16,218 bases of DNA, taken from NCBI GenBank assembly GCA_039679545.1, contig JBDKUT010000136.1, positions 1 to 16,218 on the forward strand. Direction: 5' to 3'. Every line of letters begins with the position of its first letter. Within the stretch, counting starts at the first letter, position 1. This DNA is from Thermotogota bacterium. Its GTDB lineage: Bacteria; Bipolaricaulota; Bipolaricaulia; UBA7950; UBA9294. The notes beneath the pieces are model-generated. The model did not search any database and was not told the origin of the DNA. It saw only the letters and a program-made list of their open reading frames with translations. This document shows positions 545 through 16,218 of the stretch, piece by piece. Both the position numbers and the translations under genes were made by a program.

Positions 545-788
545 TCCTGAGGCGGAGGTCGAGATAGCCAGGGTTCTTAGGATGTGCCTCATTTTGCGCG
601 TCGCTGGCGTCTCGGCTACCCTACCGGCCATCTGACATGGTACGTCGTAAGACACAAGCGCATCGCATGAGGCTGCGCTCGTCCGCATCGCGGACAGCTC
701 GAATGCACTTGGACGGTCGTCGAGGCCGTGGTGCGGTTGCGGAATGAAAAGAGGAACTTGGGTCGTGAGATCTGGGGAAGGGAGACGC

Positions 789-1877
789 ATGTCTGACCGT
801 ATGGTTCGAGCGTTCTGTGACATGGTGAGAATCGACAGCGAGTCCGGCAATGAGGCCCGGTTCATCGACTACATGCGGGGCGAGATCACACGCAGACTCG
901 GAGCACGGTGTACCGTGGACGATCACGGAAACCTGGTTGCCCGGGTGCCCGCCAAGGGGAACGGCAGCGCCCGGCCGATCCTGCTCGGCGCCCACGCCGA
1001 CACCGTGAAGCCGGGCGTCGGCATCGAGCCGGTGGTCGAAGACGGGATGATTCGTTCTCGAGGCGACACGGTCCTCGGCGCCGACAACAAGGCGGCGATC
1101 GCCGAGATCCTCGAAGCCGTGGAGACTGCGGACATACGCCCGCCCCTCGAAATCGTCCTGACGCGGGGGGAAGAGGTTGGCCTCGTGGGAGCGCGGAACC
1201 TCGACATGTCACTCATCTCGGCCAGGACCGGGTTCGTCGTCGACTCGGGTCGCCTTGACACGGTGACGATCGGGGGACCGACGCACGTGGCATTCGATGT
1301 GACGATCGTGGGCCGCGCCGCCCACGCCGGCCTCCGCCCGGAGGCCGGAATCTCGGCGATCCGCGTCGCGGCGCAGGCGATCGTCCGGATGCCCGAGGGG
1401 CGGATTGACGAGGAGACGACCGCCAACCTGGGAATCATCCACGGGGGTGCGATCCGAAACGGCGTCCCGGCGGAGGTCCGAATCCAGGGAGAGTGCCGCA
1501 GCCTGGACCATGAGAAGTGCCTACGACAGGCGGACGCGATGAAGCGGGCGTTCGAGGACGCGGCGCGCGAGGCGGGGGCGACGGTCGAGGTAGTGGTATC
1601 TGTGGAGTACGAGGCGTCTCGTCTGGCGGAAGATGCGCCTACCGTGAAGATGGCCAAGGCGGCCATCGCAGCGGTCGGGTTCGAACCGCGTACGGAGATC
1701 TCGCGGGGCGGGTCGGACGCGCTTGTTCTGAACATGCGGGGAGTCGAGACCGTGCTGCTTGGTTACGGGGGCAAGTCGGCACACACGACGGACGAGCACA
1801 TCGCGATCACGGACATGGTGAAGGCCACAGAGCTCTTGCGGACGTTGCTGGTGCAGACCGCGGTTGATGGTGAATAG
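789..1877 (+). CDS. M20 family metallopeptidase, peptidase T-like (M20B)
   Basis: Motifs AHADTVKPG, LGADNKA, RGEEVG, VVDSG, GRAAHAG.PE.GISAI, GGSD and AHTTDE give the H, D, EE, D, H dinuclear metal ligands. Start moved from 744 to ATG 789, which follows the purine-rich GGGAAGGGAG. Confidence 0.92.
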   Translation: MSDRMVRAFCDMVRIDSESGNEARFIDYMRGEITRRLGARCTVDDHGNLVARVPAKGNGSARPILLGAHADTVKPGVGIEPVVEDGMIRSRGDTVLGADNKAAIAEILEAVETADIRPPLEIVLTRGEEVGLVGARNLDMSLISARTGFVVDSGRLDTVTIGGPTHVAFDVTIVGRAAHAGLRPEAGISAIRVAAQAIVRMPEGRIDEETTANLGIIHGGAIRNGVPAEVRIQGECRSLDHEKCLRQADAMKRAFEDAAREAGATVEVVVSVEYEASRLAEDAPTVKMAKAAIAAVGFEPRTEISRGGSDALVLNMRGVETVLLGYGGKSAHTTDEHIAITDMVKATELLRTLLVQTAVDGE

Positions 1878-2031
1878 AACAGCGATTTGCTCGTCCGGGT
1901 GATCCATCGGCGACGGCTGTGTGAGCCGCTGCCGAAGCGCAACGGGCTCGGAATGAGAGACGACCATCCGCCTGGCGAAGGATGCCGTGTGCTCGACAAG
2001 TCTCTGCAGAACGCATGGGAGTGCGCAGGTC

Positions 2032-2079
2032 GCGGTTCCTGGTCAGGCACGTGAAGGCATGGCTGGGACCGGGAACCGC
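2032..2079 (+). terminator. Hairpin between convergent genes (possible terminator or stabiliser)
   Basis: GCGGTTCCTGGTC (2032-2044) pairs with GACCGGGAACCGC (2067-2079), 13 bp with one G-U; no U-tract. Confidence 0.45.
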
Positions 2080-2130
2080 ACGCGCTGAGGGCCCAGACTT
2101 GACGCCAGACGCCTCTCGATGCACGGAGCC

Positions 2131-2862
2131 CTAGTTGGTGTTGGATCCGAGCTTCAGCCACATGTAGTCCATGTAGGAGTTGCGGATGCGCTCGATCCGC
2201 TCTCGTGGCCACGTCGGATCCCAGCCCAGGCCGAGATCTCTGTCCACCAGGATCACATGGGTGGTAATGTACTCCCCGGGCCGCTCGATGATGGCGGTGA
2301 CTCCGCAGAGCCGCTCCGCCGAGCGACAGTCGCAGCAATGCCCGACCTCCGCACAAGGTGTACGCTTCCGCTTGGCCCTGGCGAGGTCGGGGATGAGGAC
2401 GTTTCGAAGCCTGTCGATCGCTTCATCGACATTGCGCACAACCTTGTTCCGACCGACGACGATGACGGCGTTCTTGGGTCCGAACATCATCCCCGTCACT
2501 CGATTCGCGTGACGGTCGATGCTGACGAGGGCTCCCCCTTCCGTCACCGCATTGGAGCTGGTGACAAAGAACTCGCAGTTCAGCGCGGCACGCGCGATGA
2601 CGCTCCGCCTCTCCATCGAGATATCGCGAGTCATCGTGAGCTCAGAGATCTTCCGGGAGAAGAGATCAATGGCGACGCGTCCATCCTGCTCAAGAGCCTC
2701 TGGGATTCCGAGCTGCCGAATCGTTACGGAGTCTCCGATACCGACCAGGGTACCTCTCGGGATCAGGCTTCGGACCTGTTCGTAGGCGGCGTCTTCGTCA
2801 TCCGCGCAGACTGCATGGAAACCATTCGACGCCAACGTTTCGCATACACGAGAGAGTTCCAT
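2131..2862 (-). CDS. LUD-domain (lactate utilisation LutB/LutC-like) protein with C-terminal Cys cluster
   Basis: Motifs L..NGF.A, VGIGDSVT..QLG, TSSNAVTE.G.LVSID..ANRV..MMFGPK..IVVGRNKVV and TPCAEVGHCCDCRSAERLC. Start moved to ATG 2862, 8 nt after SD AGGAGGT (2877-2871). Confidence 0.85.
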   Translation of the reverse strand: MELSRVCETLASNGFHAVCADDEDAAYEQVRSLIPRGTLVGIGDSVTIRQLGIPEALEQDGRVAIDLFSRKISELTMTRDISMERRSVIARAALNCEFFVTSSNAVTEGGALVSIDRHANRVTGMMFGPKNAVIVVGRNKVVRNVDEAIDRLRNVLIPDLARAKRKRTPCAEVGHCCDCRSAERLCGVTAIIERPGEYITTHVILVDRDLGLGWDPTWPRERIERIRNSYMDYMWLKLGSNTN

Positions 2863-2996
2863 CTCCAACCACCTCCTGCGTTGCTTGGCACAAGCTCCTA
2901 CGCCGCTCTCGGGCCTCGCGAGCGCCGACAAGAGCAAGACCGGCACACCCACCGAAGCCGGAGAGCGGACATTCGGTTAACACACAGTTGCCGTGC

Positions 2997-4394
2997 CTAA
3001 TGTGCGTACCACTGCCGGACCATTTTCCCAACCGCTGAGCACGACGAGAGATCGGGAAGATCCGCGAGGATGCGCTTCACAACGCTCGGCTCGAGGACGC
3101 CCTGCATCAGTAGGGTGGACTTTTCGTGCAGAGCAGCATCGCTCAGCGGGCGGCGGTAGTCGCCCGTGGGGATCTCTACGGTCGCGGAGAGACGTTTCCC
3201 GTTCTTGAGTTCAACGGTCACCGTAGCCGGGGACTCCTTCGGGGGAGTCGGTGTGGGTCGTTCGCAGACGCGTGCCCCCTCCGCTACGCGGCGCACGGAA
3301 GGATCTTCGAGCTTCGCCGCCGGAACGTTATGAAGCGGGACGCCGTGCAGCATGAGGGAGGACAGGTACGCAAGACTGAACGGCACTCCCACGGGAGTCA
3401 TGCGGGCGACGTTGGAGAGGACGTCCACGGCGTGCGAGCACACTTCGATCGTCAGCCGCGAAACGGAGGCTGGATCGATAGGATCGTGCTTGAGGATCTG
3501 TTCCAGCGCCTCCAGAGTGCTCTGCGCGTGCCAGCACGCTGGGTACGCCTTGATGCTGTCGCTCAGGATGGCGTACTCCTTCCCCAGGCCCGCCGTCAGC
3601 CGCTCCGGGTGGGATCGGTCGGACCCTGCCATGGCCCAGAATCCGTTGGGCCCTTCGAAAACTAGGGGGTTTCCGATATAGCCATCTCGTGCGAACAGCG
3701 CGGCGAGCACGGCTCCCATCGAAGCCCATCCGTACCCGTTCTTCGCCCAGGAGACGGGGCCGGGGTCGCCTCGGAGTTCTCCCCACTTCCGTCCGGACGG
3801 TACGGGCATCAACACAGCGGCGAGAGCGATCGCATGCGTCGTCTTGGTCTCGTCAAGGCGCAACAGGTTGGCGGCCGCTGCGGCGGCACCGAGGGATTGC
3901 CAGGTGGCCAGCGGCAGGACGTCATTCCCGCGCTCGGGAGACGGGGCGATGGCTCCACCCACGCGCACGGCACACTCAAACCCGGCGGCCACGGCGGCGA
4001 TGAGCTCTTCTCCGGAGCTGCCGAGCTGTTCCGCCACAGCAAGTGCGGCGGGCACGATGCCCGAGCAGGGATGGCCGCCGAAGTCGGCTCCCGAGAACAT
4101 GTCGTCGTAGTCCAGGGCGTTCGCCATGTAGCCGTTGATGCAGACGGCGTGAAGCATCGGGACCCGTTTCCCCGTGGAGAGCACCGTGGCCTGCTCCTCT
4201 CCTCCGAGGGCTGACAGAACCCCACGCACGATCCGGGCAGGCTCCGACCGCGATCCTCCGATCATCGTGCCGACGCTGCTCATGATCTGCCTAGCAGCGG
4301 CTCTTCGGACGTCGGCCGGCAGGGCCGCGAAGGATTCACGACACACGTACTTCGCCAGTGTTGCAGCGCCGCTTTCCACGTTCGTTGTTGCCAC
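2997..4394 (-). CDS. MmgE/PrpD family protein
   Basis: Motifs NG..ANALDYDD, GHP...IVPAALAVAE, SGEELIAAVAAGFE, G...VFEGPNGF, IKAYPAC and P.GD.RRPLS..L..K. Start probably GTG 4394 after SD GAGGAGG (4406-4400); the ORF is open to 4445. Confidence 0.92.
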   Translation of the reverse strand: MATTNVESGAATLAKYVCRESFAALPADVRRAAARQIMSSVGTMIGGSRSEPARIVRGVLSALGGEEQATVLSTGKRVPMLHAVCINGYMANALDYDDMFSGADFGGHPCSGIVPAALAVAEQLGSSGEELIAAVAAGFECAVRVGGAIAPSPERGNDVLPLATWQSLGAAAAAANLLRLDETKTTHAIALAAVLMPVPSGRKWGELRGDPGPVSWAKNGYGWASMGAVLAALFARDGYIGNPLVFEGPNGFWAMAGSDRSHPERLTAGLGKEYAILSDSIKAYPACWHAQSTLEALEQILKHDPIDPASVSRLTIEVCSHAVDVLSNVARMTPVGVPFSLAYLSSLMLHGVPLHNVPAAKLEDPSVRRVAEGARVCERPTPTPPKESPATVTVELKNGKRLSATVEIPTGDYRRPLSDAALHEKSTLLMQGVLEPSVVKRILADLPDLSSCSAVGKMVRQWYAH

Positions 4395-4601
4395 CAGAAC
4401 CTCCTCGTCGTCAGGACGCGACAGTATCTCCAGCCTCTTTCCCATCCGGTATGACCAGCTGCTGACCGGACTCGATGGCAGCCGGGACGGCGCGAGCAGG
4501 TGAGTCCAACCTCAATTCAGGCTTCGCGACGTAACTGCTCTGCCTGCTCGGTTTTCCCAGCCCACACTTCGTCTCGTGAACAGAGACGGCGACCACCAGG
4601 G

Positions 4602-5441
4602 CTATTGCACCATCCTTCCACGAAGATGCGGATCGAGCACATCCCGCAGGCCGTCTCCAAGAAGGTTGAATCCGATCGCTGCCAGGGTGATGGTGAGGCC
4701 GGGGAACACCACGAGCCACGGCGCCGCGCGGAAGTAGTGCCGGCCGTCGGCAACGATGCGGCCCCACGTCGGCGAGTCGGGCGGGGCTCCTAGTCCGAGA
4801 AAGCTCAGGCTCGACTCAAGCAGGATCACGTAGGGAAGGTACGTACTGCATAGGACGATGATGGGGGCGACGAGGTTCGGAAGGACATGGCGGAGCAGGA
4901 TGCGCAACCTCGAGGCACCCACGGAACGCGCGGCAGTGATGTATTCAATGCTGCGGAACGGAAGCGCCGAACCTCGCATCACGCGTGCGAAGCGCGGGAC
5001 CAAGGTCAAACCAATTGCAACGATGAGCGGCCCCCGCCCGGCTGAGCCGAAGAAACCGACAACGAGCAGCGCGACCATCATGGCCGGGAAGGACATCAGG
5101 ACGTCGACGATGCGGCTGAGCGTCATGTCGAGGCCCCCGCCGCTGTAACCAGCGAGAATCCCGCACGGGATTCCCACCCCCGCCGAGACCAGAAGCGTCG
5201 CCGCAGCCAAGACAAGCGTCCCCCAGCCGGAGTTCAGCACGAGGCTGAGGACATCCCGCCCATAGGAATCAGTACCGAAGGGGTGATGGCTAGATGGTGC
5301 AGCGAGCTGCTCCGGCGAGAAGGCGCGTGGGTTGTAGGACGATAGGCAGGACGGGAAGGTACACGCAAAGATAACGGCGAGAACGAGCACGCCGCCCACC
5401 AGGGTCATCCTGCTTCTCAGCAAACGCTTCATCGAGATCAC
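4602..5441 (-). CDS. Peptide/nickel ABC transporter permease (DppC/OppC-like)
   Basis: PSSHHPFGTDSYGRDVLS, EAA loop EYITAARSVGASRLRILLRHVLPN, LSFLGLG.PP..PTWG, FNLLGDGLRDVLDP. Confidence 0.95.
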   Translation of the reverse strand: MISMKRLLRSRMTLVGGVLVLAVIFACTFPSCLSSYNPRAFSPEQLAAPSSHHPFGTDSYGRDVLSLVLNSGWGTLVLAAATLLVSAGVGIPCGILAGYSGGGLDMTLSRIVDVLMSFPAMMVALLVVGFFGSAGRGPLIVAIGLTLVPRFARVMRGSALPFRSIEYITAARSVGASRLRILLRHVLPNLVAPIIVLCSTYLPYVILLESSLSFLGLGAPPDSPTWGRIVADGRHYFRAAPWLVVFPGLTITLAAIGFNLLGDGLRDVLDPHLRGRMVQ

Positions 5442-5477
5442 CCACCCTGCAAGGAGCCGAGGAACAACGTGCCACCG

Positions 5478-6428
5478 TCAGTCATACCGCACCCGTGGAT
5501 CGAGGATGCCGTAGAGGACATCAACGATCAGGTTGATCAGGACGACCATCGCAGAGATGACAAGGATGCACCCCTGCGTGAGGGGGTAGTCCCTGGCGGA
5601 GATGGCTGTGAAGTAGAGGCGACCGAGCCCCGGACGACTGAACACCACCTCAGCGATCACGACTCCCCCGAGCATGATGATGATCTCCACGCCGACGAGG
5701 CCGAGTACTCCGGTCATCGAGTTGCGCAGAGCGTGTCTGTACTGGACGAGCCTCTCGGAGAGACCTTTGCTGCGCGCAGTGCGAATGTAGTCCGCGGCCA
5801 GCACGTCGAGCATCTCGCAACGCACCATGCGCGAGACCATTCCAGTCGTCCGCAGGCCGTTGACAAGCCACGGCAGAACGAGGTGCGGGAGATAGGTGGC
5901 GTACAAGCCAGGTGTCTCGGCACCGATGATCGGGAAAACCCTTGCCTTCACCCCCAACCACCAGAGAAGAACGTACGCGAGAACGAAGGAAGGCATCGAA
6001 ATGAAGACGAACGACATTGACATCACGGACAGGTCGAGGGCTGAGTTCTGGCGGACGGCGGCGAACACCCCGAACGCGATGCCCAGGGCCACGCCGATCA
6101 AAATGCTGCCGATCATGAGGCGGACGGTATAAGGGTAGACATCGGAGACCATCTTGCTGATCGGCATGCCTGAGCGGAGAGACGTCCCGAGGTCACCGTG
6201 GAACAACTCACGCATGTAGATCTCGAACTGCTCCCAGAGCGGCTTGTCGAGACCCCACTTCGCCGTGACCTGAGCCTTCAGCTCTGGAGTTGCATAGTCA
6301 CCGAGCCAGATGTCTACGGGGTCCCCGGGGACGGCGCGCAGGAAGAAGAACGCTCCCACTGCCACCAAGAGCACCGTCGCTACGCCGATGACGCACCTGC
6401 GAAGGATGAACTTGAGCACGGACCTCAC
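5478..6428 (-). CDS. Peptide/nickel ABC transporter permease (DppB/OppB-like)
   Basis: VPGDPV, GLDKPLWEQF, GDLGTS, DYIRTARSKGLSE, HALRNS, EVVFSRPGLG, RDYP, VDVLYGILDPRVR. The start may be GTG 6428 or 6419. Confidence 0.95.
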   Translation of the reverse strand: MRSVLKFILRRCVIGVATVLLVAVGAFFFLRAVPGDPVDIWLGDYATPELKAQVTAKWGLDKPLWEQFEIYMRELFHGDLGTSLRSGMPISKMVSDVYPYTVRLMIGSILIGVALGIAFGVFAAVRQNSALDLSVMSMSFVFISMPSFVLAYVLLWWLGVKARVFPIIGAETPGLYATYLPHLVLPWLVNGLRTTGMVSRMVRCEMLDVLAADYIRTARSKGLSERLVQYRHALRNSMTGVLGLVGVEIIIMLGGVVIAEVVFSRPGLGRLYFTAISARDYPLTQGCILVISAMVVLINLIVDVLYGILDPRVRYD

Positions 6429-6526
6429 CTGACGACATCGCTCGCAGAGAGGAGATCGGTCGGGCTTCTTGTGCCCCCGGTTCCTTTTCTGCGTCTCGAT
6501 CCCTGAACCGCTTGCGAGCGCCCCAT

Positions 6527-6562
6527 GCCGAGGAGGGCGAGTATAGGCCCGCCCTCCTCGGC
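6527..6562 (-). terminator. Strong intercistronic hairpin after the SBP gene
   Basis: Perfect 13-bp stem GCCGAGGAGGGCG (6527-6539) / CGCCCTCCTCGGC (6550-6562) with a 10-nt loop and no U-tract, about 25 nt after the SBP stop. Confidence 0.7.
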
Positions 6563-6587
6563 GCCTCGGTACGCGATGCCACCGACG

Positions 6588-8135
6588 CTACGGTTGCGCG
6601 GGATGCGCCCCGGCGAGGTCGAAGACTCCCGAGAACGGGATGACCGTAACGCCGGCAACCTTGTTGGAGACTGCCACCCACGCGATCTGCTCGGCCGGGT
6701 AGATGCCGATAGCCTGGTCGCTGACTGCCTTCTGGACTTCGCGCCAGAGCTCCTTCGCCTTCTGTTCGTCCGGTTCAGCGGACGCTCTGGCGATGAGATC
6801 GTCCATTTCCGGATTCGAATAGCCGAAGTAGTTCTGCGGCGAGCCTGTGATGTAGGACTGCGCGTACAGGTAAGGAGCGAACCGCGTCATCGACCAAATG
6901 CAGACGTCCTGCTGTCGCGCCACGACCGTCTTCTGGTAGACGCCGTACTCGATGACGCTGAAGTTCACCTTCACGCCGATCTGAGACCAGCACTGCGCCA
7001 CCTCGAGGGCTACATCCTCGTACATGTACACTTTTGGGTAGATGAAGCTGATCTCGAGGCCGTTGGGGTACCCCGCCTCGGCAAGAAGCTGCTTGGCCTT
7101 TGCCGGATCGTAGCTGTAGTTCCAGAATTCGTCCGTGGAGGCGAAGCAGACTTCGTTGAACGGGCTCGGGTACATCTTCTGCATGGCCCCCAGTCGCTTG
7201 GCGATCGTCGGGAGATCCAACGCGTAGGCCAAGGCCTGCCTGACCTTCAGGTTGTTCATCGGGGCTTTGGTGTGGTTGAAGAAGAGGATGTGCTGCCAGG
7301 ATCCTCCGAGCGAGGACGAAAGGGCCACCCCCGGGATGTCCTCAGCGCGCGTGATGCTTCCCTTCTCGACCAGACCCACGACATCCAGCTCACCCGTTTC
7401 GAGGGCATCGAGAGCCAGCGTGTCTTCCGGAATGATCAGGCACTCGATTTCGTCGTATGCGGGAGCTCCGAAGCCCCACTCCGGCGCGCCCCAGTAACCG
7501 TCGAACTTCTTGAGAATCACCGCGACGCCGGTCTTCCACTCCACGAACTGGTAAGGTCCCGTTCCGATCGGGTGGCGCTGGTACTCACTGCCGAGCTGTT
7601 CCACCGCACGGCGCGACACGATCATGCCGCTGCCCTGCCAGGCGAGCAGGGGTAGGAACGATAGAGCGCTCGGTGTCTTCAGAGTAACGACGACTGTGTA
7701 GGGTCCGGTTGCCTGAACATCCGCGACGTTCAGGAAGTTCGATGCCTCCATCGAACCCACCGATTTGTCCATGTGCCGCTTCAACGAATACACGACATCG
7801 TCCGCGGTAAGCTCGCCATACCCACCGTGGAACTGGATCCCTTCGTGGATCTGGAACGTGATGCTCTTCCCATCCTTGGAGATCTCGTAGCTCTTGGCGA
7901 GACGAGGCTTGACCGGGTACGGAGGCGCTTGCGTCCAGTCAAGCTGGACAAGGCCTTCCATAACCTGTTGAACGACGAGACGATCGGCCGCCGTATGCAA
8001 CTGCGCGGAGTCCAGGTTCACGACGTCGGCCGCCAAGCGAACCCGCAAGACTCCGCTTGCGGAGACCGAGAGTGTTACGGCCAACACGACAACCAGCGTA
8101 ACAGCCAGCAAGCCCAACGCCCTACGCAACCTCAT
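6588..8135 (-). CDS. ABC transporter substrate-binding protein, Dpp/Opp (family 5)
   Basis: Signal peptide without a lipobox; LAKSYEIS.DG, FHGGYGELTADDV.YS, PIGTGPY, KVRQALAYALD, YDPAKAKQLLAEAGYPNG; SD GGAGGT upstream. Confidence 0.95.
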   Translation of the reverse strand: MRLRRALGLLAVTLVVVLAVTLSVSASGVLRVRLAADVVNLDSAQLHTAADRLVVQQVMEGLVQLDWTQAPPYPVKPRLAKSYEISKDGKSITFQIHEGIQFHGGYGELTADDVVYSLKRHMDKSVGSMEASNFLNVADVQATGPYTVVVTLKTPSALSFLPLLAWQGSGMIVSRRAVEQLGSEYQRHPIGTGPYQFVEWKTGVAVILKKFDGYWGAPEWGFGAPAYDEIECLIIPEDTLALDALETGELDVVGLVEKGSITRAEDIPGVALSSSLGGSWQHILFFNHTKAPMNNLKVRQALAYALDLPTIAKRLGAMQKMYPSPFNEVCFASTDEFWNYSYDPAKAKQLLAEAGYPNGLEISFIYPKVYMYEDVALEVAQCWSQIGVKVNFSVIEYGVYQKTVVARQQDVCIWSMTRFAPYLYAQSYITGSPQNYFGYSNPEMDDLIARASAEPDEQKAKELWREVQKAVSDQAIGIYPAEQIAWVAVSNKVAGVTVIPFSGVFDLAGAHPAQP

Positions 8136-8702
8136 GTGCCACCTCCACTATGCCGCCACGGAACCACATATGGTGTTATCCCAAGGGGATGTCCTCCGCC
8201 TTGTCAAGCACTCGCTGTTACCTCCCACCTCCTCCCGCACCCTGAGCCATAGATCGAGCAGCCGGGCCGCCGCAATGCCGCCCGCACCAGCAGCTCCACG
8301 CCCGCTTTGTGGCTCAGCAGGCACCGCGTCCGGTCTGGCTGCGACAGGCACGCGGGGGAATACCCGCGTCCTGCAGATCCTCATGCGCCCTATGCGGTGC
8401 TTCCCGGGGCAAGTCGGCCGGCGTGCCGCGTGATCGCAGACCCGGCATCTCGACGGTGACTGGAAGTTCGGACAAAGCAAGTCGACTGGGAGGGCGAGAA
8501 AGATGGTCTGCCGAGGGTGAGGGTGCGTAAACGTAAAGGGTGCGCAACCTGGCGCATGCTGCTGAGAGGAAGATGAGACAAGTAGCTGCGCGTCTGCCGG
8601 GTACGCTGACTTGAGGCAGCCCTGGCCAGTTGCCCGCTGCTTGGAATGCCACAATGGCCATGTCGGTTCAGATTCAGCTGCCGAGTTGACCGCCTCCAGC
8701 GA

Positions 8703-8753
8703 TTGGTATACCGGCATACCAGCACTATACCACGGCCTTGCTACAACTGTCAA
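8703..8753 (-). promoter_or_regulatory. sigma70-like promoter P2 (extended -10) with tandem GntR/FadR-type operator
   Basis: Minus strand TTGACA(8753-8748)-N18-TATAGT(8729-8724), with TG at the extended -10 position, followed by GCTGGTATGCCGGTATACCAA. Confidence 0.75.
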
Positions 8754-9013: not shown

Positions 9014-9760
9014 CTAGCCTACGCCGGCGAAGTGCTCCGCCATCAGCGCCTGGGCGAGTTGGGCGTCTCGGGCCCTGATGGCATCGAGGATCTCACGGTG
9101 CTCGTTGATCGAGTCTACGATGCGGGTTGACGTCTCACGCAGGCGGCGGTGCATGATCATCTCCCAAATCGGCTGGGTCATGACGTAGCAGAGCATCCAC
9201 CGGGCGAGCCTCTCGAAGATGCTGTTCCCCGAGGCAACGGCGATCGACAGGTGGAACTTCCGATGCGCGTCGAGAAAGCGGTCCATGTCTCCCGTTGCGT
9301 GGGCGTCGACCATACCTTGGAATGCTGTCTCGATGCTCTTAAGCGACGTGGGTGTGAGTTCCGCGATGGCGGCGGCGAGGATTGCGCCCTCCAGGACTTT
9401 TCGCAGCTCGCTGATCTCAAACGGGCTTTCGCTCTCCGCAAGAAGCGAGAAAGCCGATGCCTCGGAGGAATTTGCCGCCTGCCCGACGGAAAACGCTCCA
9501 ACTCCCGGCTCGATCCGGATCTTCCCAACCATCTGGAGGGCGATCAGGGCCTCGCGGACCGGGGATCGGGTGATCTTAAGTTGGGCCGCGACTTCACGCT
9601 CCGACGGAAGCTTCTTGCCGGGCGGGTAGTCTCGCAGCAGTTCCTCGAGGTACTGGAGCGCGAGCTCGCTCTTCTTGGGCTGCGGGAACATCCCGTACTG
9701 CCAGGTGTCCCACGAATCTGGCGGTCTTCGTGGGGCACTCCCGGTCTCGGCGTTTGACAT
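9014..9760 (-). CDS. FadR/GntR family transcriptional regulator (wHTH + FCD)
   Basis: PGKKLPSEREVAAQLKITRSPVREAL..L...G; FCD motifs FH.SIAVASGN, EHREILDAI, MAEH. Confidence 0.95.
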   Translation of the reverse strand: MSNAETGSAPRRPPDSWDTWQYGMFPQPKKSELALQYLEELLRDYPPGKKLPSEREVAAQLKITRSPVREALIALQMVGKIRIEPGVGAFSVGQAANSSEASAFSLLAESESPFEISELRKVLEGAILAAAIAELTPTSLKSIETAFQGMVDAHATGDMDRFLDAHRKFHLSIAVASGNSIFERLARWMLCYVMTQPIWEMIMHRRLRETSTRIVDSINEHREILDAIRARDAQLAQALMAEHFAGVG

Positions 9761-9795: not shown

Positions 9796-9896
9796 ACGTA
9801 CTTGAGCTTTGGCCTCTAGGCGCGGCCGGTTGCGCGGAGCGCTGTTCTGTGCTCGCGGGTGACGGCCGTCATCCGATGCCGGCGAGGGGAGTTTGG

Positions 9897-11075
9897 ATGC
9901 GTGGGAATTGGAACGCTGAGGGGCGTGCAGCGCTTCTGATGTGTGCCGTCCTTCTTGTCGGGGTGCCGTGGTCTCTCGAGGCGTCGGAGGTCGTATGGTC
10001 GTTCGCGACGGGTGACGCGATCGTCTCGTCGCCCGCGGTCGGCGCCGACGGCGTTATCTTCGTCGGCTCGCGTGACGGATTCCTGTACGCCCTGGAATCC
10101 GATGGCACACTGCGCTGGCGGTTCGCGACACACGGGCGGGTCGATTCGTCCCCGGCGATCGGATCGGACGGGTCAATCTTCGTGGGCTCGGAGGACGGAC
10201 AGCTTTACGCCCTCCGTGCGGACGGACAGCTTCGCTGGACCGCCTCGTTAGGCGGTCCTGTCGAGTGCTCTCCAGCGATCGGCACGGACGGCACGATCTA
10301 CGTCGGCTACACGGATCGCGGGCTCGGGGAAAGCGCTTTGTGCGCATTCTCTCCGGCGGGAGAGCTTCTCTGGTCTCACTTCACCGATGGGCCGGTGTTC
10401 TCCTCTCCGGCGATCGGCACGGATGGGACCGTTTACTTCGGTGCGTTCGACTACTCCCTCCACGCGGTCGACCCGAGCGGACAACTGAAGTGGGCCTACA
10501 AGACCGGAACGTGGGTCCGGTCCTCTCCAGCGATCGCGTCTGATGGGACCGTGGTCTTCGGCTCCGACGACCATGGCGTGTATGCCGTCGATCGGGACGG
10601 GAATCTCAAGTGGCACGTCGTGACCGGCGGGCCCGTCATCGCCTCGCCCGTGATCGGGCAGGACGGCACAGTGTTCGTTGGATCAGATGATGGGCTCTTC
10701 TATGCCATTAGCGAGGCGGGGAAGATCGTATGGGCCTTCCGTGCGCAAGGGTGGATCGAGTCCGCTGCGCTTGTGGGCGCCGACGGCTCGGTCTGGTTCG
10801 GCTGCCACGGCGGCGGCTTCTATGAGCTCACGGCGGACGGGGTGCTGGTCTCCTTGCTCGTCGGTGGCAGCGCCGTCGTGTCGGCTCCGGTCTTCCACGC
10901 GAGCACCGGGAGCGTCATCTTCGGAGCGAGCAACGGTGTTCTCTATGCTCTTCGAGTTCACGCCGGTGAACCTGCCGCCTCCAGTTGGCCGATGTTTCGG
11001 GGGTGCCCTGCCCACACGGGCGTCGCCTGGATCTCCGCGGGCCCATCGGCGGGCGGAGGGGATAGGGCCCGATAG
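9897..11075 (+). CDS. Secreted PQQ-binding-like (BamB-type) 8-bladed beta-propeller repeat protein
   Basis: Signal peptide, then eight ~40-aa repeats W.F.T.G...SSPAIG.DG.(I/V)(F/Y)VGS.DG.LYA(L/V)..DG..(R/K), with C-terminal WPMFRG.PAHTG. Start ATG 9897 follows GAGGGGAG. Confidence 0.9.
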   Translation: MRGNWNAEGRAALLMCAVLLVGVPWSLEASEVVWSFATGDAIVSSPAVGADGVIFVGSRDGFLYALESDGTLRWRFATHGRVDSSPAIGSDGSIFVGSEDGQLYALRADGQLRWTASLGGPVECSPAIGTDGTIYVGYTDRGLGESALCAFSPAGELLWSHFTDGPVFSSPAIGTDGTVYFGAFDYSLHAVDPSGQLKWAYKTGTWVRSSPAIASDGTVVFGSDDHGVYAVDRDGNLKWHVVTGGPVIASPVIGQDGTVFVGSDDGLFYAISEAGKIVWAFRAQGWIESAALVGADGSVWFGCHGGGFYELTADGVLVSLLVGGSAVVSAPVFHASTGSVIFGASNGVLYALRVHAGEPAASSWPMFRGCPAHTGVAWISAGPSAGGGDRAR

Positions 11076-11108
11076 CGCGCCTATGACGGCTGTTTTACAG
11101 GCTGGGGG

Positions 11109-11156
11109 TTGACAGGCAACCTGGTGACCGGCATACTGGTATACCGGTATGACCAA
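11109..11156 (+). promoter_or_regulatory. sigma70-like promoter P3 with tandem GntR/FadR-type operator overlapping the -10, TSS and ATG
   Basis: TTGACA(11109-11114)-N17-CATACT(11132-11137), embedded in CCGGCATACTGGTATACCGGTATGACCAA. Confidence 0.8.
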
Positions 11157-11952
11157 CCAGGGTTCTCAGGTCTCTAGCGGCACGACTCCCGTCCCGCCTT
11201 TCTTGCGGCCGGCAGCACCAATCGGAGAAAGCAAGAAGAGCGTCACGGCCTTCAAGTACATCGTTCAGCTCCTCGAATCCACTGTCCCGAAGGCGAAGCT
11301 CCCATCCGAGAGGGACATTGCCGATGCGCTCGGGATGACGCGGTCTCCCGTTCACGAAGCGCTCGTCGCCTTGCGGATGGCAGGGAGGATCCGGATCGTC
11401 CCGGGCGTCGGAGCGTACCCGGTGGCGGCAGAGGAGAAAAAGGTGGAGGAGGGGTCGGGGCTCCTCTTTCTCGCTGAGTCGGAGAGCCCGCACGAGGTCT
11501 TTCAGCTTCGCGTTGTGGTTGAGGAGGTGATCCTGCGGACGTTGGTCCCGGAGCTGACTCCAGGCAAGGCGGCGCAGATCGACCTCGCGTTTCGGCGCCT
11601 GGCCGACGCGATGAACCGCGGCGGCATCGAGGCCTACCTGGAGGCGAATCGCGTGTTCCACATGTCACTCGCTGTAGCGACGGGGAACACGCTTCTCGCG
11701 AAGCTCGAGTACTGGATGCTCTACCAGGTCATGACCGAGCGCCTCTGGCGCGAGGTCCTGGATAGTCGTTTGCGAGAGATGGGGGACGACGTGGCCCGGG
11801 TCGTGCAGTCGCTGATCGAGGAGCACCAGCAGATTTTGCTGGCCATTCGTTCGCAGGACACGGAAAGAGCTGTCCGTCTGATGCTTCAGCACGTCGGACG
11901 GATTGAAGCGGACGTCGAAGCACCAGAAACCAAGAGGATCGGAGAGGAGTGA
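11149..11952 (+). CDS. FadR/GntR family transcriptional regulator (wHTH + FCD), paralog of 9014-9760
   Basis: KLPSERDIADALGMTRSPVHEALVALRMAGRIRIVPGVGAY; LAESESP; NRVFHMSLAVATGN, EEHQQILLAI, MLQH. Confidence 0.95.
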   Translation: MTNQGSQVSSGTTPVPPFLRPAAPIGESKKSVTAFKYIVQLLESTVPKAKLPSERDIADALGMTRSPVHEALVALRMAGRIRIVPGVGAYPVAAEEKKVEEGSGLLFLAESESPHEVFQLRVVVEEVILRTLVPELTPGKAAQIDLAFRRLADAMNRGGIEAYLEANRVFHMSLAVATGNTLLAKLEYWMLYQVMTERLWREVLDSRLREMGDDVARVVQSLIEEHQQILLAIRSQDTERAVRLMLQHVGRIEADVEAPETKRIGEE

Positions 11953-13148
11953 GAAACGTGTCACTGAAAGTCGAGTACTGCGGCGTCAAGATGCGGAACC
12001 CGATTATCGCGGCGTCAGCGACGCCGACGATCGGGCCGATGAACCTGCGTCGGCTGGACAAGGCGGGAGCCGGCAGCGCGGTGATCAAGTCCGTGGTGTT
12101 CCCGGTGTCGAAGCCGGGAGAGCCCATCCAACGGTACGGGAAGAACCCACGGCCGCGGTTCGCGGTCATCAACAAGGCCGGGACGGTCTACGACCCGACC
12201 CTGACTGCGAAGGACAGCTACTTCACGCTGTTCCGGTACGGCGAGCGGTATCCCACGCCGGACGAGTACGCGGAAGGCATCCGGCAGCTCAAGAAAGAGA
12301 TCGAGATGCCGATCATTGCCAGCATCTGCGCCGCTCCCTACAAGTACGACGACTGGAAGAAGCTCTGCGAGATCATGCAGGACGCGGGCTCCGATGCTGT
12401 TGAGCTCAACATGCACTGCCTGCCGAAGATTAAGGGGAACATGACGGACCCGGGCATCGTCTCGGCCGTCAAGAGCGTCGCGAAGATCCCTGTCATTGTG
12501 AAGCTGATGTCAGACTCGGAGGACCCCGCCGAGGTCGGTCCGAAGGTCGTCGCGGCAGGTGCTGACGCGATTACGGCCATTGGTACGTTCGGTCGCCCGG
12601 TCCTCGAGATCGACGCCGAGAAGGAGGAGTTCTTCCTCCAGCCGACGTTCGGAGGCATGGGCGGCACGTGGAATCGGCCGGTGGGATTGGCGTGGATCGC
12701 CCGTCTTGCGCGCGTCGTCAACGTCCCGCTCTCCGGCGTGTCCGGCGTGTCGGACTGGCGGGATGTCGTGAAGTACATCCTCGTCGGCGCGACGACGGTT
12801 CAGGTGTGCGGCGCTCTCTACGCCAAGGGGTATGGCCTCATTGGTGAGATGACCAAGGGCATCGAGGGGTACATGGAGCGCCATGGGTACGGGAGCCTCG
12901 AGGACTTCCGCGGAAAGCTCCTGAAGGACATCAAGTCTGAGGCCCAACTTCCGCAGGATCCGCCGGTCAAGGCCGCGATCGACAAGGCGAAGTGCGTCGG
13001 GTGCGGGAAATGCGTCGACTCCTGCTTCTTCACGGCGATTTCCATGAAGAGCAAGAAGGCGGTCGTCGATCAGAACGCCTGCGACGGATGTGGCATCTGC
13101 ACGTGGGTCTGCCCGGTCCAGGCTCCCAAGATGGCCCGGGTCGGGTAA
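11949..13148 (+). CDS. Dihydroorotate/dihydropyrimidine dehydrogenase (PreA-like) FMN barrel with C-terminal 2x[4Fe-4S] domain
   Basis: NPIIAAS, VIKS, PIIASI, ELNMHC, IPVIVKL, GADAITAIGT, GGMGG, SGVSGV, GATTVQVC; CVGCGKCVDSC and CDGCGICTWVCP. The start is GTG 11949 (overlapping the upstream stop) or 11958. Confidence 0.88.
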   Translation: MRNVSLKVEYCGVKMRNPIIAASATPTIGPMNLRRLDKAGAGSAVIKSVVFPVSKPGEPIQRYGKNPRPRFAVINKAGTVYDPTLTAKDSYFTLFRYGERYPTPDEYAEGIRQLKKEIEMPIIASICAAPYKYDDWKKLCEIMQDAGSDAVELNMHCLPKIKGNMTDPGIVSAVKSVAKIPVIVKLMSDSEDPAEVGPKVVAAGADAITAIGTFGRPVLEIDAEKEEFFLQPTFGGMGGTWNRPVGLAWIARLARVVNVPLSGVSGVSDWRDVVKYILVGATTVQVCGALYAKGYGLIGEMTKGIEGYMERHGYGSLEDFRGKLLKDIKSEAQLPQDPPVKAAIDKAKCVGCGKCVDSCFFTAISMKSKKAVVDQNACDGCGICTWVCPVQAPKMARVG

Positions 13149-13161
13149 CGGGAGAGCAAGC

Positions 13162-14049
13162 ATGGAGACGCGAATCGCCGTCGCTCAGTCAGCACTCGGA
13201 AGCGACAAGAAACGCAACCTGAAGGGAGCCGTGGGGCTCATCGAGCGAGCGGCGGCCGGCGGTGCGAGGGTCGTGTGCTTCCCCGACTACTTCTTGACGG
13301 GGGTCCCGACCTCGGACGATGTCGGCAAGCTGCCGCGGATCGCGGAGCTCGTCCCGGACGGCCCGAGCGTCCGAGCACTTGCCGCGGCGGCCGCGGAGCA
13401 TGAGATCTACGTCATCGCCGGAACCCTCGTGGAGTCCGGCGATGACGGGAAGCTCTACTCAACGTGCGCCTTCCTCGGCCCGGACGGCTCTCTGGTGGGG
13501 AAGATCCGCAAGTCTCACCCAGAGAACGCGCCCGCGAAACACGAGTTGGGATGCGGAATCGTTCCGGCCGACCCGGAGTACCGGGTGTTCGACACGGAGT
13601 TCGGCAAGGTCGGAATCATGCTGGACATGGAAGGGATCGCGGTGGAGGTTCCGCGCATCCTGGAGGTGAAAGGGGCCGAGATCATCTTTTGGCCCCTGAA
13701 CTTCAGCGCCCGCTTCCCGGGCGTCGGGGTCGAAGTGGCGTGCTACTCAGGGTTTACACACGCCTACGTGGCCGCGGCCTGCGGCGTCGGCTGGGCGAAG
13801 GGCGTTCCGGTGCACCCGGAGGCGTTCTACGGCGAGCCGCGAGCCGACCTTTTCTACCCCGGCGGCAGCGCGATCGCGTTCTGCGGAGAGATCATCGCTC
13901 GGGCCCCGAGCTTCTCGGAGGGGGTTGCGTACGCGATGGTGGATCCGGCGAGGGTTCAGGCTGTACGGGCCTCGCGGCGCAAGCACATACCGCTGGAGCG
14001 ACGTCCGGAGACGTACGTCGATCTCGTGAAATCGATGGCAAGACCGTAA
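13162..14049 (+). CDS. Carbon-nitrogen hydrolase (nitrilase superfamily) fold protein with non-canonical active site
   Basis: RIAVAQ, RAAAGGARVVCFPD, HEIYVIAGT, G.LYST.AFLGPDG.LVGKIRKSH, VFDTEFGKVG, GAEIIFWP, GGSAI, ERRPETY. ATG 13162 follows GGAGAG. Confidence 0.9.
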   Translation: METRIAVAQSALGSDKKRNLKGAVGLIERAAAGGARVVCFPDYFLTGVPTSDDVGKLPRIAELVPDGPSVRALAAAAAEHEIYVIAGTLVESGDDGKLYSTCAFLGPDGSLVGKIRKSHPENAPAKHELGCGIVPADPEYRVFDTEFGKVGIMLDMEGIAVEVPRILEVKGAEIIFWPLNFSARFPGVGVEVACYSGFTHAYVAAACGVGWAKGVPVHPEAFYGEPRADLFYPGGSAIAFCGEIIARAPSFSEGVAYAMVDPARVQAVRASRRKHIPLERRPETYVDLVKSMARP

Positions 14050-14065
14050 AGGGGCGATTCCTGAG

Positions 14066-14467
14066 ATGAAGAGAGTGGAGATCACATTCGAGCGGGGGGG
14101 CAAGTTCGTCATTGAACTCCTGGAGAAGGAGGCTCCCAAGACGTGCGCGGCGCTCCTGAAGGCGCTGCCCTTGGTGGGCCTGGAGGTTCGCCACGCGAAG
14201 TCCTCGGGGGACGAGGTGTACGTCCAGGCGATGTCGATGGACGTCTCGGAGGAGAACAACGTTGTCCCCGCGCAGGGAGGTGTCGCCTTCAACGTGATGC
14301 CGAACTGGCGGGCGATCTGCATCTACTACGGCCCGAAGATCACAAACAAGTTCAACTTCAACCTGTTTGGGCACGTGACGAAGGACCTAAAGACACTAGA
14401 AGAGGTCGGCAATCGGGTGTGGTTGCGCGGCACGGAGAAGGCCGACATCAGACTAGTTAAGGACTAG
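14066..14467 (+). CDS. DUF3830-like / cyclophilin-like fold small protein
   Basis: F..ELLEKEAPKTC.A....LP, RHAK.SG.EVY, EN, I.IYYG, NLFG, L.EVG.RVW..G resemble DUF3830 proteins as recalled; sits tightly in the operon. Confidence 0.7.
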   Translation: MKRVEITFERGGKFVIELLEKEAPKTCAALLKALPLVGLEVRHAKSSGDEVYVQAMSMDVSEENNVVPAQGGVAFNVMPNWRAICIYYGPKITNKFNFNLFGHVTKDLKTLEEVGNRVWLRGTEKADIRLVKD

Positions 14468-14575
14468 GCGGGACGGGAGGTGGTGCGGTCTCGGAAAGCC
14501 GACGACGCTCCAATGCCGCGGCAGGGCGGAATCCTGAAAAGGCAAACGCGTAGGAATGGGAAGGGAGGAAAGCTC

Positions 14576-16156
14576 ATGAAGCGAAGTGCAAGGATGGCCC
14601 TAGTACTCCTCTTGGGCGTGACGATGGCGCTCGCGTTCGTCGCAACGGCGTACGCGACCGATCTTGTGTACGCGCGGCCGTCGCTCGGAACGAAATTCCT
14701 CGATCCACACCAAGGTGGGAACTCGGGGCGGTACCAGAACCTGAACCTCGTCTATGACACGCTCGTCTTCTCCGACGACGGCGGCACGTTGTACCCGCTT
14801 CTTGCGGAGTGGTGGGAGGCCTCAGAGGACTACACGCAGTGGACGTTCCACCTGAGGTCCGGAATCGTCTTCCACGACGGAACGCCGCTCAACGCGGCCG
14901 CGGTGAAGTTCAGCTTTGACCGCATCGTCGGGATCGGCAACCATACCGTGGCGCAGTGGCGGTACATGGGAAAGGACTCGACGATCGAGGTCGTCGACGA
15001 CCTGACGGTGCGATTCAAGCTGTCGAAGCCGTATCCGCTTTTCCTGACGGAGCTCGTGTACGCCTGCTACGGCATCATCTCGCCGACGGCCGTCCAGCAG
15101 CATGCGACGGCGGCCGACCCGTGGGCAACTGAGTACTTCAGCAGCAACGAGTGCGGATCGGGCCCGTTCCAGTTCGTTGAGTACGTCCCAGGCGAGCGCC
15201 TGATCCTCGGGCGGAACCCCAACTACTGGGGTGGCGTCGAGGGCGTGAAGTGCGCGGCGAAGGTCGATCGCCTCGTGATGCGCATCGTCCCGGACGCGAC
15301 GACGCGCGCGATCATGCTTCAGAGCGGCGAGGTTGACATGGCGGAGCAGCTCCCCGTGGACCTGCTCGGGCAGCTCGCGACGGCGCCGGGCATCAAGGTC
15401 GAGTACTACCCTCTCCACGCCTTCGCTGAGATTCAGTTCAACGGCGGTAAGGCACCGTTCAACAACGAGAAGGTGCGGCAGGCGATCAGCCACGCGATCG
15501 ACGTTGACTCGATCATCAACGGGGTCGAGAAGGGGCACGTCCTTCCGATGTACGGGGTTGCGACGCAGGGGATGATCGGCTACGACCCGACGCGCCAGCG
15601 ACCAACCTACGATGTGGCGCTCGCGAAGCAGCTGATGGCCGAGGCCGGGTATCCGAACGGCTTCGAGACGACGCTGATCTGGGCGCCTGAGCGGCGTGCC
15701 GAGTTCGACCTGGAGGCCGTGCTGATTCAGGAGTACCTGGCGCAGATCGGCATCAAGCTGACGCTGCAGTCGCTCGCGTGGTCGGCGGAGCTCGAGAAGC
15801 AGCTGAACGCCGACTTCGACATGTCCCTGATGACGATGACCTCGGGCACGGGCGACCCGTCGTCGATCTTCGATAAGTACCTCGCGCCCCCGCATCCGGC
15901 CGCTGTCGGCCAGTACAGCTTCCGTTGGGTCGACGCGCCACCGTTTGTTGCGGAACTGGTGGAATACGGTACGACGATCTGGGATCCGGCCACGCGCCAG
16001 CACCTCTACGCCTTCCTCGATGCCGTCGGGACGGCGGCGACGGTGAACGTTCCGCTATACCAGATCCCAGTCGCGTTCGCGATGCGCAGCAATGTGCACG
16101 GATTCGTCTACGACACATTGAGGCGCGCCTGCTTCTACTTCGTGAGCAAGGACTGA
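14576..16156 (+). CDS. ABC transporter substrate-binding protein, Dpp/Opp (family 5)
   Basis: Signal peptide ending AYA; LDP, VYDTLV, PLLAE.WE.SED..WTFHLR.GI.FHDGTPLNAAAVKFSFDR, GSGPF, KVRQAISHAID, YD..LAKQLMAEAGYPNGF. Start ATG 14576 follows GGGAGG. Confidence 0.95.
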   Translation: MKRSARMALVLLLGVTMALAFVATAYATDLVYARPSLGTKFLDPHQGGNSGRYQNLNLVYDTLVFSDDGGTLYPLLAEWWEASEDYTQWTFHLRSGIVFHDGTPLNAAAVKFSFDRIVGIGNHTVAQWRYMGKDSTIEVVDDLTVRFKLSKPYPLFLTELVYACYGIISPTAVQQHATAADPWATEYFSSNECGSGPFQFVEYVPGERLILGRNPNYWGGVEGVKCAAKVDRLVMRIVPDATTRAIMLQSGEVDMAEQLPVDLLGQLATAPGIKVEYYPLHAFAEIQFNGGKAPFNNEKVRQAISHAIDVDSIINGVEKGHVLPMYGVATQGMIGYDPTRQRPTYDVALAKQLMAEAGYPNGFETTLIWAPERRAEFDLEAVLIQEYLAQIGIKLTLQSLAWSAELEKQLNADFDMSLMTMTSGTGDPSSIFDKYLAPPHPAAVGQYSFRWVDAPPFVAELVEYGTTIWDPATRQHLYAFLDAVGTAATVNVPLYQIPVAFAMRSNVHGFVYDTLRRACFYFVSKD

Positions 16157-16218
16157 GGAAGCGCAGCAGACACCAGAGGGGAGTCGGGGCGCGTCCCCCC
16201 AGGAAGAGGCCCGGCGCA

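Follow-up and report, generated by a model that had tools for sequence, protein, structure and literature searches.

The window analysed here is the whole of contig C136 (16,218 bp), one of the 163 contigs of a 2.35-Mb genome (93.6% complete), and its closest relatives are labelled Candidatus Bipolaricaulis or Bipolaricaulota. Gene calls and Pfam searches placed five co-directional genes at positions 11109-16156, encoding a GntR/FCD regulator, a PreA-like oxidoreductase, a nitrilase-fold protein, a DUF3830 protein and a family-5 (SBP_bac_5) solute-binding protein (SBP) (Table 1). Here we describe the altered active sites of the reductase and the nitrilase-fold protein, and the recurrence of their genes with those for DUF3830 and a D-2-hydroxyacid dehydrogenase in other lineages. 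We put at about an even chance that the conserved operon encodes an undescribed, anaerobic, ferredoxin-linked pathway, by which an imported nitrogen-containing carboxylate other than uracil, thymine or orotate would be converted to a 2-oxo or 2-hydroxy acid.

The first four genes are tightly coupled, as a preliminary description of this DNA had stated: a 4-nt overlap (GTGA) joins the regulator and reductase genes, and gaps of 13 nt and 16 nt precede the nitrilase-fold and DUF3830 genes. An alternative start of the reductase gene, GTG 11958, has a better distance to GGAGAGGAG and may be used instead, which would leave a 5-nt gap and no overlap. A longer nitrilase-fold open reading frame (ORF) from 13090 was without support. 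The SBP gene follows DUF3830 in the order given by the preliminary description. Its ORF is open from GTG 14480, but its start is most likely ATG 14576, which has GGGAGG at a distance of 7 nt on its upstream side and opens into a signal peptide; the two genes would then be 108 nt apart and not about 12 nt.

Table 1. Features of the gene cluster in the window
Feature	Positions	Strand	Basis
Putative sigma-70-type promoter: -35 TTGACA (11109-11114), 17-nt spacer, -10 CATACT (11132-11137)	11109-11137	+	
Predicted operator, three 8-nt repeats CCGGCATA CTGGTATA CCGGTATG	11126-11151	strandless	
GntR regulator with FCD ligand domain, 267 aa	11149-11952	+	Pfam
PreA/PydAc-like oxidoreductase, FMN (DHO_dh) barrel with C-terminal 2x[4Fe-4S], 399 aa	11949-13148	+	Pfam
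Nitrilase-fold protein (CN_hydrolase), 295 aa, start ATG	13162-14049	+	Pfam
DUF3830 / cyclophilin-like beta-barrel protein, 133 aa	14066-14467	+	Pfam
Family-5 (Dpp/Opp/opine-type) ATP-binding cassette (ABC) SBP with signal peptide, 526 aa	14576-16156	+	Pfam SBP_bac_5

Active sites of the encoded proteins

The nitrilase-fold protein belongs to the nitrilase superfamily (PF00795), with a Pfam CN_hydrolase match at 6.4e-35 (121 bits against a cut-off of 23.2). Its AF2 model (pLDDT 92.8) was aligned by Foldseek with N-carbamoylputrescine amidohydrolase (5h8k; E 2e-25, TM 0.85), and also superposed on Nit2, archaeal amidases and beta-ureidopropionase with TM up to 0.86. NCBIfam equivalogs were not reached, the best scores being those for archaeal nitrilase (76.7 bits against 500) and AguB (76.4 against 410), and the matches in the ESM Atlas were generic CN_hydrolase clusters only. 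The superfamily is defined by a Glu-Lys-Cys triad. In the window protein the Glu-Lys-(Glu)-Cys site with its cysteine nucleophile is absent: alignments gave the tetrad D42-K117-E128-D155, where canonical relatives have E-K-E-C, and confirmed the D-K-D site that had been read earlier.

Homologs of 230-340 aa, 89 in number and drawn from 101 hits, were used to follow this change. Twenty-five of them are without the cysteine, the 23 closest with D-K-E-D and the next two with E-K-E-D, while the other 64 keep it. Aspartate stands at the cysteine column in 20/20 orthologs read from loci, and the first Glu is kept in the Bacillota versions. Within the family (45-100% identity) 46 of the 295 columns are invariant, including K117, E128, D155 and the motif PENAPAK.E, as is His218, which lies in a family-specific insertion. 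Because of these invariant columns, the pattern argues for a constrained, working site rather than for decay; activity itself is not derivable from the pattern.

The loss of the nucleophile in all family members would suit a non-catalytic pseudoenzyme, which could serve the PreA-like reductase, the DUF3830 protein or both as a structural partner, as a regulatory one or as a subunit for ligand binding, the chemistry then being left to the reductase, DUF3830 and the 2-hydroxyacid dehydrogenase. The PreA-like protein is also without its usual PreT partner, and a paralogous PreA-like and DUF3830 pair in loci L006 and L007 occurs without a nitrilase-fold gene. We nevertheless consider this explanation unlikely, since the replacement is always Asp, with no mixture of residues, and the invariance of K117, E128, the family motif and the remainder of the 46 positions is typical of a constrained active site. 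A literature search on nitrilase-superfamily pseudoenzymes with aspartate for the catalytic cysteine gave nothing relevant by title or abstract among the papers listed.

In the PreA-like reductase, matches to Pfam DHO_dh (1.1e-26) and Fer4 families and eight invariant cysteines give the architecture of a barrel with 2x[4Fe-4S]. Its score to NCBIfam PreA (NF006183) was 205.4 bits, below the equivalog cut-off of 335, and its closest structural relative by sequence was pig dihydropyrimidine dehydrogenase (DPD), domains IV-V (E 9e-26). According to excerpts of PMC10970046, pig DPD holds 5-fluorouracil by N609, N668, S670, N736 and T737, and the acid of its catalysis, C671, is mutated in the 1H7X complex. 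The window protein keeps N668, C671 and T737 and has Gly for N736 and His for S670 (signature K-T-N-H-C-G-T); the set of pyrimidine-binding residues of PreA and DPD is incomplete. Among 119 homologs, the 50 closest constitute the family (44-100% identity) and the 69 more distant ones include those named PreA. Gly was found at the N736 column in 49/50 family members as against 0/69 distant homologs, and His at the S670 column in 47 of the 50. The C671 column holds Cys in about 27 of the family and Ala in about 17, and the equivalent of N609 in the window protein is probably Thr.

By these alignments the reductase appears to keep one of the three uracil-binding asparagines, N668, so that the earlier term "Asn-less PreA", though right for N736 and probably for N609, was overstated. 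The broader claim that the active sites of both enzymes are remodelled was borne out, the changes being fixed across both families. Orotate or dihydroorotate is an unlikely substrate, the Asn at the N736 position being lost; dihydroorotate dehydrogenases (DHODs) also use this residue.

The DUF3830 protein (PF12903; 55 bits against a cut-off of 26) gave an AF2 model with pLDDT 97.4, for which Foldseek returned the family founder structure 3kop (TM 0.82), the KslB barrel (TM 0.79-0.84) and McbB, in agreement with weak sequence matches. DUF3830 has no characterised relatives other than the barrels of two Pictet-Spenglerases, KslB and McbB. Some DUF3830 proteins carry a Cucumopine_C helical bundle (P0221), but the window protein is a barrel only. 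Residues E50, E63, N64, Y88, R117 and E124 are invariant among its orthologs. The family is small, a set of 1.84 billion proteins having yielded 938 representatives at E <= 0.001, and a literature search on DUF3830 found no papers. Excerpts of PMC12012969 describe KslB as condensing L-Trp with 2-oxoglutarate or succinic semialdehyde, with Glu274, Lys264 and Arg256 as key residues.

The SBP matched Pfam SBP_bac_5 at 9.2e-96, and its best match in the PDB was 5u4o, followed by HbpA, DppA and AgaA; AccA was also matched. The named equivalogs searched (DppA, NikA, GsiB and OppA) were not reached, the best being NikA with 171 bits against 393.

Conservation and extent of the gene neighbourhood

An alignment of the Cys-less nitrilase-fold family was used as query, which gave 8 loci in species-representative genomes and 14 in metagenomes. 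Partner genes at the 22 loci were scored by tblastn, and ORFs of high-GC loci were anchored by tblastn. The PreA-like gene was present in 17 of the loci, DUF3830 in 13, the 2-hydroxyacid dehydrogenase in 12 and all four genes in nine; most of the misses were contigs of 1.1-4.5 kb ending beside the nitrilase-fold gene. Where flanks were long, all four genes were found in 7/8 loci. The exception, L013, is without DUF3830 and the 2-hydroxyacid dehydrogenase, and in it the nitrilase-fold and reductase genes are fused: nitrilase-fold residues 1-210 and reductase residues 130-398 lie in one 513-aa ORF (L013:3401-4942). This fusion appears to be a deletion or an assembly artefact, because L024 has both genes intact. 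Separately, L009:3401-4558 has an in-frame stop in the reductase where the near-identical L023 has Trp.

The lineages carrying the module are, by their labels, Bipolaricaulota, Aerophobetes, Bacillota and one Thermotogae-labelled metagenome-assembled genome, and a cultured human-gut isolate, Zhenpiania hominis BX12 (Bacillota), carries the cluster. At least six gene orders were found, with three types of transporter (SBP5-ABC, TctCBA and a PutP/PanF-like SSF symporter) and two types of regulator (GntR/FCD or a sigma-54 activator). The module is larger than the gene list in the preliminary description, from which the D-2-hydroxyacid dehydrogenase, a conserved fourth enzyme, was missing, and the SBP on that list is no conserved part of it, being replaced elsewhere by TctABC or SSF. 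Frequent additions are Fe-ADH and an acetyl-CoA hydrolase/transferase-family protein in Bacillota loci, and an aminotransferase and AFOR in Aerophobetes and Bipolaricaulota loci. In every Bacillota version the SSF gene is followed by a short ORF of 143-181 aa that has no match in Pfam (L011:9263-9808, L012:7848-8354, L026:5307-5738) and possibly encodes a transporter accessory subunit.

The preliminary description had allowed that the genes might not co-occur elsewhere, or might match an already characterised pathway. They were found together across phyla in shuffled order, and literature searches gave no description of the module and no characterised pathway matching it. A search for a carbon-nitrogen hydrolase clustered with a DHOD and a 2-hydroxyacid dehydrogenase returned nothing relevant, and the main text of the uric-acid paper PMC12507026 mentions neither nitrilase, cyclophilin nor DUF. 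The explanation that unrelated genes stand side by side behind a regulator, without shared function, draws on the evidence being genomic alone. It is exceedingly improbable and largely refuted by the conserved neighbourhood: the same families are adjacent in at least four phylum-level lineages and six orders with changing transporters and regulators, and the junctions range from the 4-nt overlap to 16 nt.

Locus L006 (about 90% nucleotide identity, 87-90%) is collinear with C136 11105-16213, then with C25 1-3185 and then with C82 1-4429, from which we infer that the operon continues from C136 through C25 into C82. Contig C25 carries two Dpp-type permeases and the orthologous D-isomer 2-hydroxyacid dehydrogenase, and C82 a second 2-Hacid_dh gene, a 2-oxoacid:ferredoxin oxidoreductase (OFOR) of the pyruvate/2-ketoisovalerate (POR/VOR) type, an ADP-forming SucCD-like ligase pair and AFOR. 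In agreement with the earlier claim that the cluster holds no dihydropyrimidinase, no Amidohydro_1/dihydropyrimidinase (DHPase) gene was found in the window cluster, C25, C82 or any related locus scanned, and no PreT-type FAD/NAD(P)H partner (Pyr_redox-type gene) was found in the whole window, C25, C82 or the related loci scanned. Three hydantoinase/DHPase-like genes do occur elsewhere in the genome, outside the cluster.

A hydantoinase/DHPase-like gene on contig C32 (L005:3-9529) scores 393 bits to TIGR02033, and after it come two AFOR genes, one unknown gene, a DHO_dh+Fer4 protein, a GntR-like match and a carbamate-kinase-like gene. The DHO_dh+Fer4 protein is the third of its type and 28% identical to the window reductase. 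This gene set may be the real ureide or pyrimidine route of the organism.

These results bear on ordinary reductive pyrimidine catabolism, in which the reductase would be a PydAc-type DPD, the nitrilase-fold protein a beta-ureidopropionase, and a DHPase-like gene elsewhere would open the ring. Extended Pyd clusters also contain aminotransferase and Fe-ADH genes, and such genes lie near some of the clusters found here. Together with the three DHPase-like genes elsewhere in the genome, the best NCBIfam match of the reductase, which is PreA, and the existence of FAD-less DPDs such as PydAc (excerpts of PMC7332683), this speaks for such a route. We regard it as very unlikely, however, because the PreA score is far under the cut-off, the Gly and His at N736 and S670 are family-wide and neither is seen in true PreA homologs, every nitrilase-fold ortholog is without the Cys nucleophile, no dihydropyrimidinase is present in any locus scanned, and the D-2-hydroxyacid dehydrogenase and DUF3830 would have no place.

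The genome holds three DUF3830 genes, in the window and on contigs C152 and C62. That on C62 (L004:6281-14512) lies in an operon of a helix-turn-helix (HTH)-cupin gene, HyuA, HyuB, DUF3830, an M24 creatinase/prolidase-like gene and SBP5, and the same operon was present in 18/20 DUF3830 loci fetched from the phylum (L037-L053, L055), which links DUF3830 a second time to cyclic-amide enzymes. In L006:245-7705 and L007:1698-7369 (minus) a further operon, divergent from the GntR gene, contains an aminotransferase, the paralogous PreA-like gene (45% identical, with ELDLSA in place of ELNMHC), a DUF3830 paralog, flavodoxin, AFOR and SBP5; an operon of this type was not found in the window's genome. 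DUF3830 is thus repeatedly found beside cyclic-amide enzyme families (DPD-like and hydantoinase/oxoprolinase A/B) and SBP5 importers.

Promoter, operator and other genes of the window

The preliminary description had placed all the genes behind one operator-bearing promoter. The element TTGACA-17-CATACT (10/12 matches) was indeed the only promoter-like site within 10900-16218. The operator can also be read as a palindrome, CATACTGG-N4-CCGGTATG, with 12-nt arms that are 92% complementary. It overlaps the -10 hexamer, the likely transcription start and the GntR ATG, and the GntR mRNA is probably leaderless because the element ends in the start codon. The 5/5 loci that were aligned (window, L006, L007, L014 and L010) all retain the operator, together with GGGTTGACA and the -10 hexamer, which are both invariant, whereas the sequence upstream of the element is not conserved.

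The GntR protein is predicted to bind this operator. It was matched by Pfam FCD (1e-20, 74.8 bits) and GntR (3.9e-9, 36.5 bits), and has the N-terminal winged HTH and C-terminal FCD domain of the FadR/FCD subfamily; the NCBIfam equivalogs searched gave none at cut-off. Orthologs lie upstream of the PreA-like gene in L006, L007, L010 and L014.

The operator motif gave 10 matches in the window against 0.06 expected. Operator-like 8-nt-repeat sites (…TGGTATACC…) also occur at 495-518, upstream of the PepT-like M20 gene region, and at 8701-8724, between a second GntR gene (9014-9760, -) and an SBP5-permease-MmgE/PrpD operon. The motif was further found on contig C152 (41452-41471), 89 nt upstream of the second DUF3830 gene, where it merges with a promoter of the form TTGACT-16-TATACT. 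The two GntR paralogs of the window (45% identical) may control a common regulon. Between their genes lies a PQQ-like beta-propeller protein with signal peptide (9849-11075, +), an arrangement also seen in L014. The region 744-8135 encodes a PepT-like M20 peptidase, a LUD-domain protein, an MmgE/PrpD-family protein, two Dpp-type permeases and a second SBP5, and is another unit of the peptide/organic-acid type for uptake and catabolism, the second GntR being its regulator. The datasets bearing the sequence are wastewater, sediment and landfill DNA metagenomes, with no RNA dataset among those listed.

Proposed pathway and comparison with known systems

In the pathway that we propose, the GntR/FCD protein would sit on the operator and silence the leaderless operon to which its own gene belongs, a carboxylate ligand would relieve this repression, and the SBP and permeases, or TctABC or an SSF symporter in other lineages, would import the substrate. 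The PreA-like reductase would move two electrons between ferredoxin and a C=C/C-C bond beside a carbonyl, by analogy with PydAc and uracil; its pocket would keep the contacts to the two oxygens (N668, T737) and lose the ring-NH contact of N736 and probably that of N609. The Asp-type nitrilase fold, a carboxylate/Lys/Glu site rather than a thiol amidase, would together with DUF3830 act on a C-N bond of the intermediate, converting or opening it by way of an enamine or imine, and release a 2-oxo acid. For DUF3830 the likeness is to the KslB barrel, which binds an amino acid and a 2-oxoacid. The D-2-hydroxyacid dehydrogenase would interconvert the 2-oxo acid and the matching 2-hydroxy acid, and the product would be harvested by OFOR, the ADP-forming CoA ligase and AFOR here, and by Fe-ADH and CoA-transferase in Bacillota. 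The co-adapted module suggested by the preliminary description stands, both remodelled sites being fixed family-wide, but its suggestion of a heterocycle or modified nucleobase as substrate is conjectural.

Two more definite assignments lost ground. The product 2-oxoglutarate was weakened as a candidate, the downstream OFOR scoring as pyruvate/2-ketoisovalerate type and not as KOR. Pantothenate catabolism, considered in view of a PanF-like SSF, D-2-hydroxyacid dehydrogenase, VOR, dihydroxyacid dehydratase and SHMT, was dropped because it leaves the reductase without a role and no PanB-like gene was seen in the loci scanned.

A more specific version of the proposed pathway is the catabolism of an opine-like secondary amine or an N-acyl/dehydro amino acid. 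Here the flavoenzyme would oxidise the substrate, and DUF3830 and the nitrilase fold would resolve the imine or enamide to an amino acid or ammonia and a 2-oxo acid. The relatives of DUF3830 in the cucumopine synthase/KslB family make an amino acid-2-oxoglutarate iminium adduct, the PDB matches of the SBP include AgaA and AccA, which bind opines, the SSF carriers belong to the PutP-like, imino-acid-carrying type, and 2-hydroxyacid dehydrogenase, aminotransferases and OFOR are nearby. The KslB catalytic residues are not conserved in DUF3830, however, and to our knowledge DHOD/DPD-fold enzymes carry out C-C and not C-N dehydrogenation. In so specific a form the proposal seems to us rather unlikely.

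Several points weigh against the proposed pathway as a whole. Every chemical step is drawn from family membership and neighbourhood, and the nitrilase-fold protein, having lost its nucleophile, may have no catalytic activity. About one third of the reductase family carries Ala where DPD has the catalytic Cys671, so that even the redox step may not be that of DPD. The change of N609 to Thr rests on one gapped pairwise alignment that MAFFT does not reproduce, the MAFFT column being itself unreliable because true PreA shows Gly there. In a HMMER alignment Glu274, Lys264 and Arg256 of KslB fall on N, A and A of DUF3830 and the columns vary; since these catalytic and carboxylate-binding residues are not conserved, homology to KslB says little on the chemistry of DUF3830. 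A nitrogen-free unsaturated dicarboxylate is also a possible substrate, as DHOD-family sites reduce fumarate. Contigs C25 and C82 are joined to C136 by synteny with L006 only. The independent cases are fewer than 22, L020/L021, L009/L023 and L013/L024 being near-duplicates, and the module is rare: it was found in 4/184 genomes of the phylum (its own included) and, among 399 sampled Clostridia, in none but the query genome.

If the proposed pathway holds, the constrained clade that carries Asp for the nucleophile would use a new mechanism or else be a well-defined pseudoenzyme, and DPD/DHOD-fold reductases would extend to a new class of substrates in anaerobes that rely on ferredoxin. That the Cys-to-Asp clade is a new catalytic type, partnered with a stand-alone DUF3830 and a DPD-like reductase for a common nitrogen-containing acid, is possible, but we hold it to be doubtful. 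If true, it would give DUF3830, now tied to two conserved catabolic operons, a first physiological function, and would bring a non-thiol mechanism into a superfamily defined by its catalytic cysteine. The module is a good lead for enzyme discovery, being compact, present in a cultured isolate as well as in uncultured wastewater and sediment lineages, and equipped with two ligand sensors, the SBP and the FCD domain.

Among characterised enzymes, the one closest to the PreA-like reductase is the ferredoxin-dependent PydAc rather than PreA/PreT. Excerpts of PMC7332683 describe PydAc of Clostridium chromiireducens as a ferredoxin-dependent DPD that reduces uracil, with two ferredoxin domains and no FAD/NADPH domains. 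As far as those excerpts go, the two share an FMN barrel fused to [4Fe-4S] modules, a cluster without a PreT part and a place in a catabolic cluster of a strict anaerobe, while the window protein has one ferredoxin domain, at its C-terminus, where PydAc has two. The equivalents of the FMN Lys, N668 and T737 are kept as in PydAc and in PreA/DPD domains IV-V. Unlike these enzymes, the family has Gly for N736 and His for S670 throughout, probably Thr or Ser for N609, and Ala for Cys671 in about one third of its members; there is no dihydropyrimidinase nearby and the PreA equivalog score is below the cut-off.

The nitrilase-fold protein resembles the nitrilase-superfamily amidases (5h8k, the Nit2 omega-amidase 2w1v and the beta-ureidopropionase 2vhi) in fold (TM 0.77-0.86) and in the Lys and second Glu of the tetrad. 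It differs in the Asp that replaces Cys in every member, in the Asp that replaces the first Glu in non-Bacillota members, and in the PENAPAK.E motif and the insertion with invariant His218, which are its family's own. DUF3830 shares with KslB, McbB and cucumopine synthase the same beta-barrel and the motifs SGxE..Y, YGP and VGxxVW, but is here a stand-alone barrel of 133 aa with its own invariant set, including E63-N64.

The dihydropyrimidinase of Pyd clusters is absent from the loci scanned, both enzyme sites are remodelled, and DUF3830 and the D-2-hydroxyacid dehydrogenase are added. In common with those clusters, one regulator governs a reductase, an uptake system and a protein with the fold of a C-N hydrolase, with aminotransferase and Fe-ADH genes near some versions. 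The module is therefore Pyd-like in outline, while its proteins and gene content place it outside PreA, the thiol amidases of the nitrilase superfamily and the Pyd clusters themselves.

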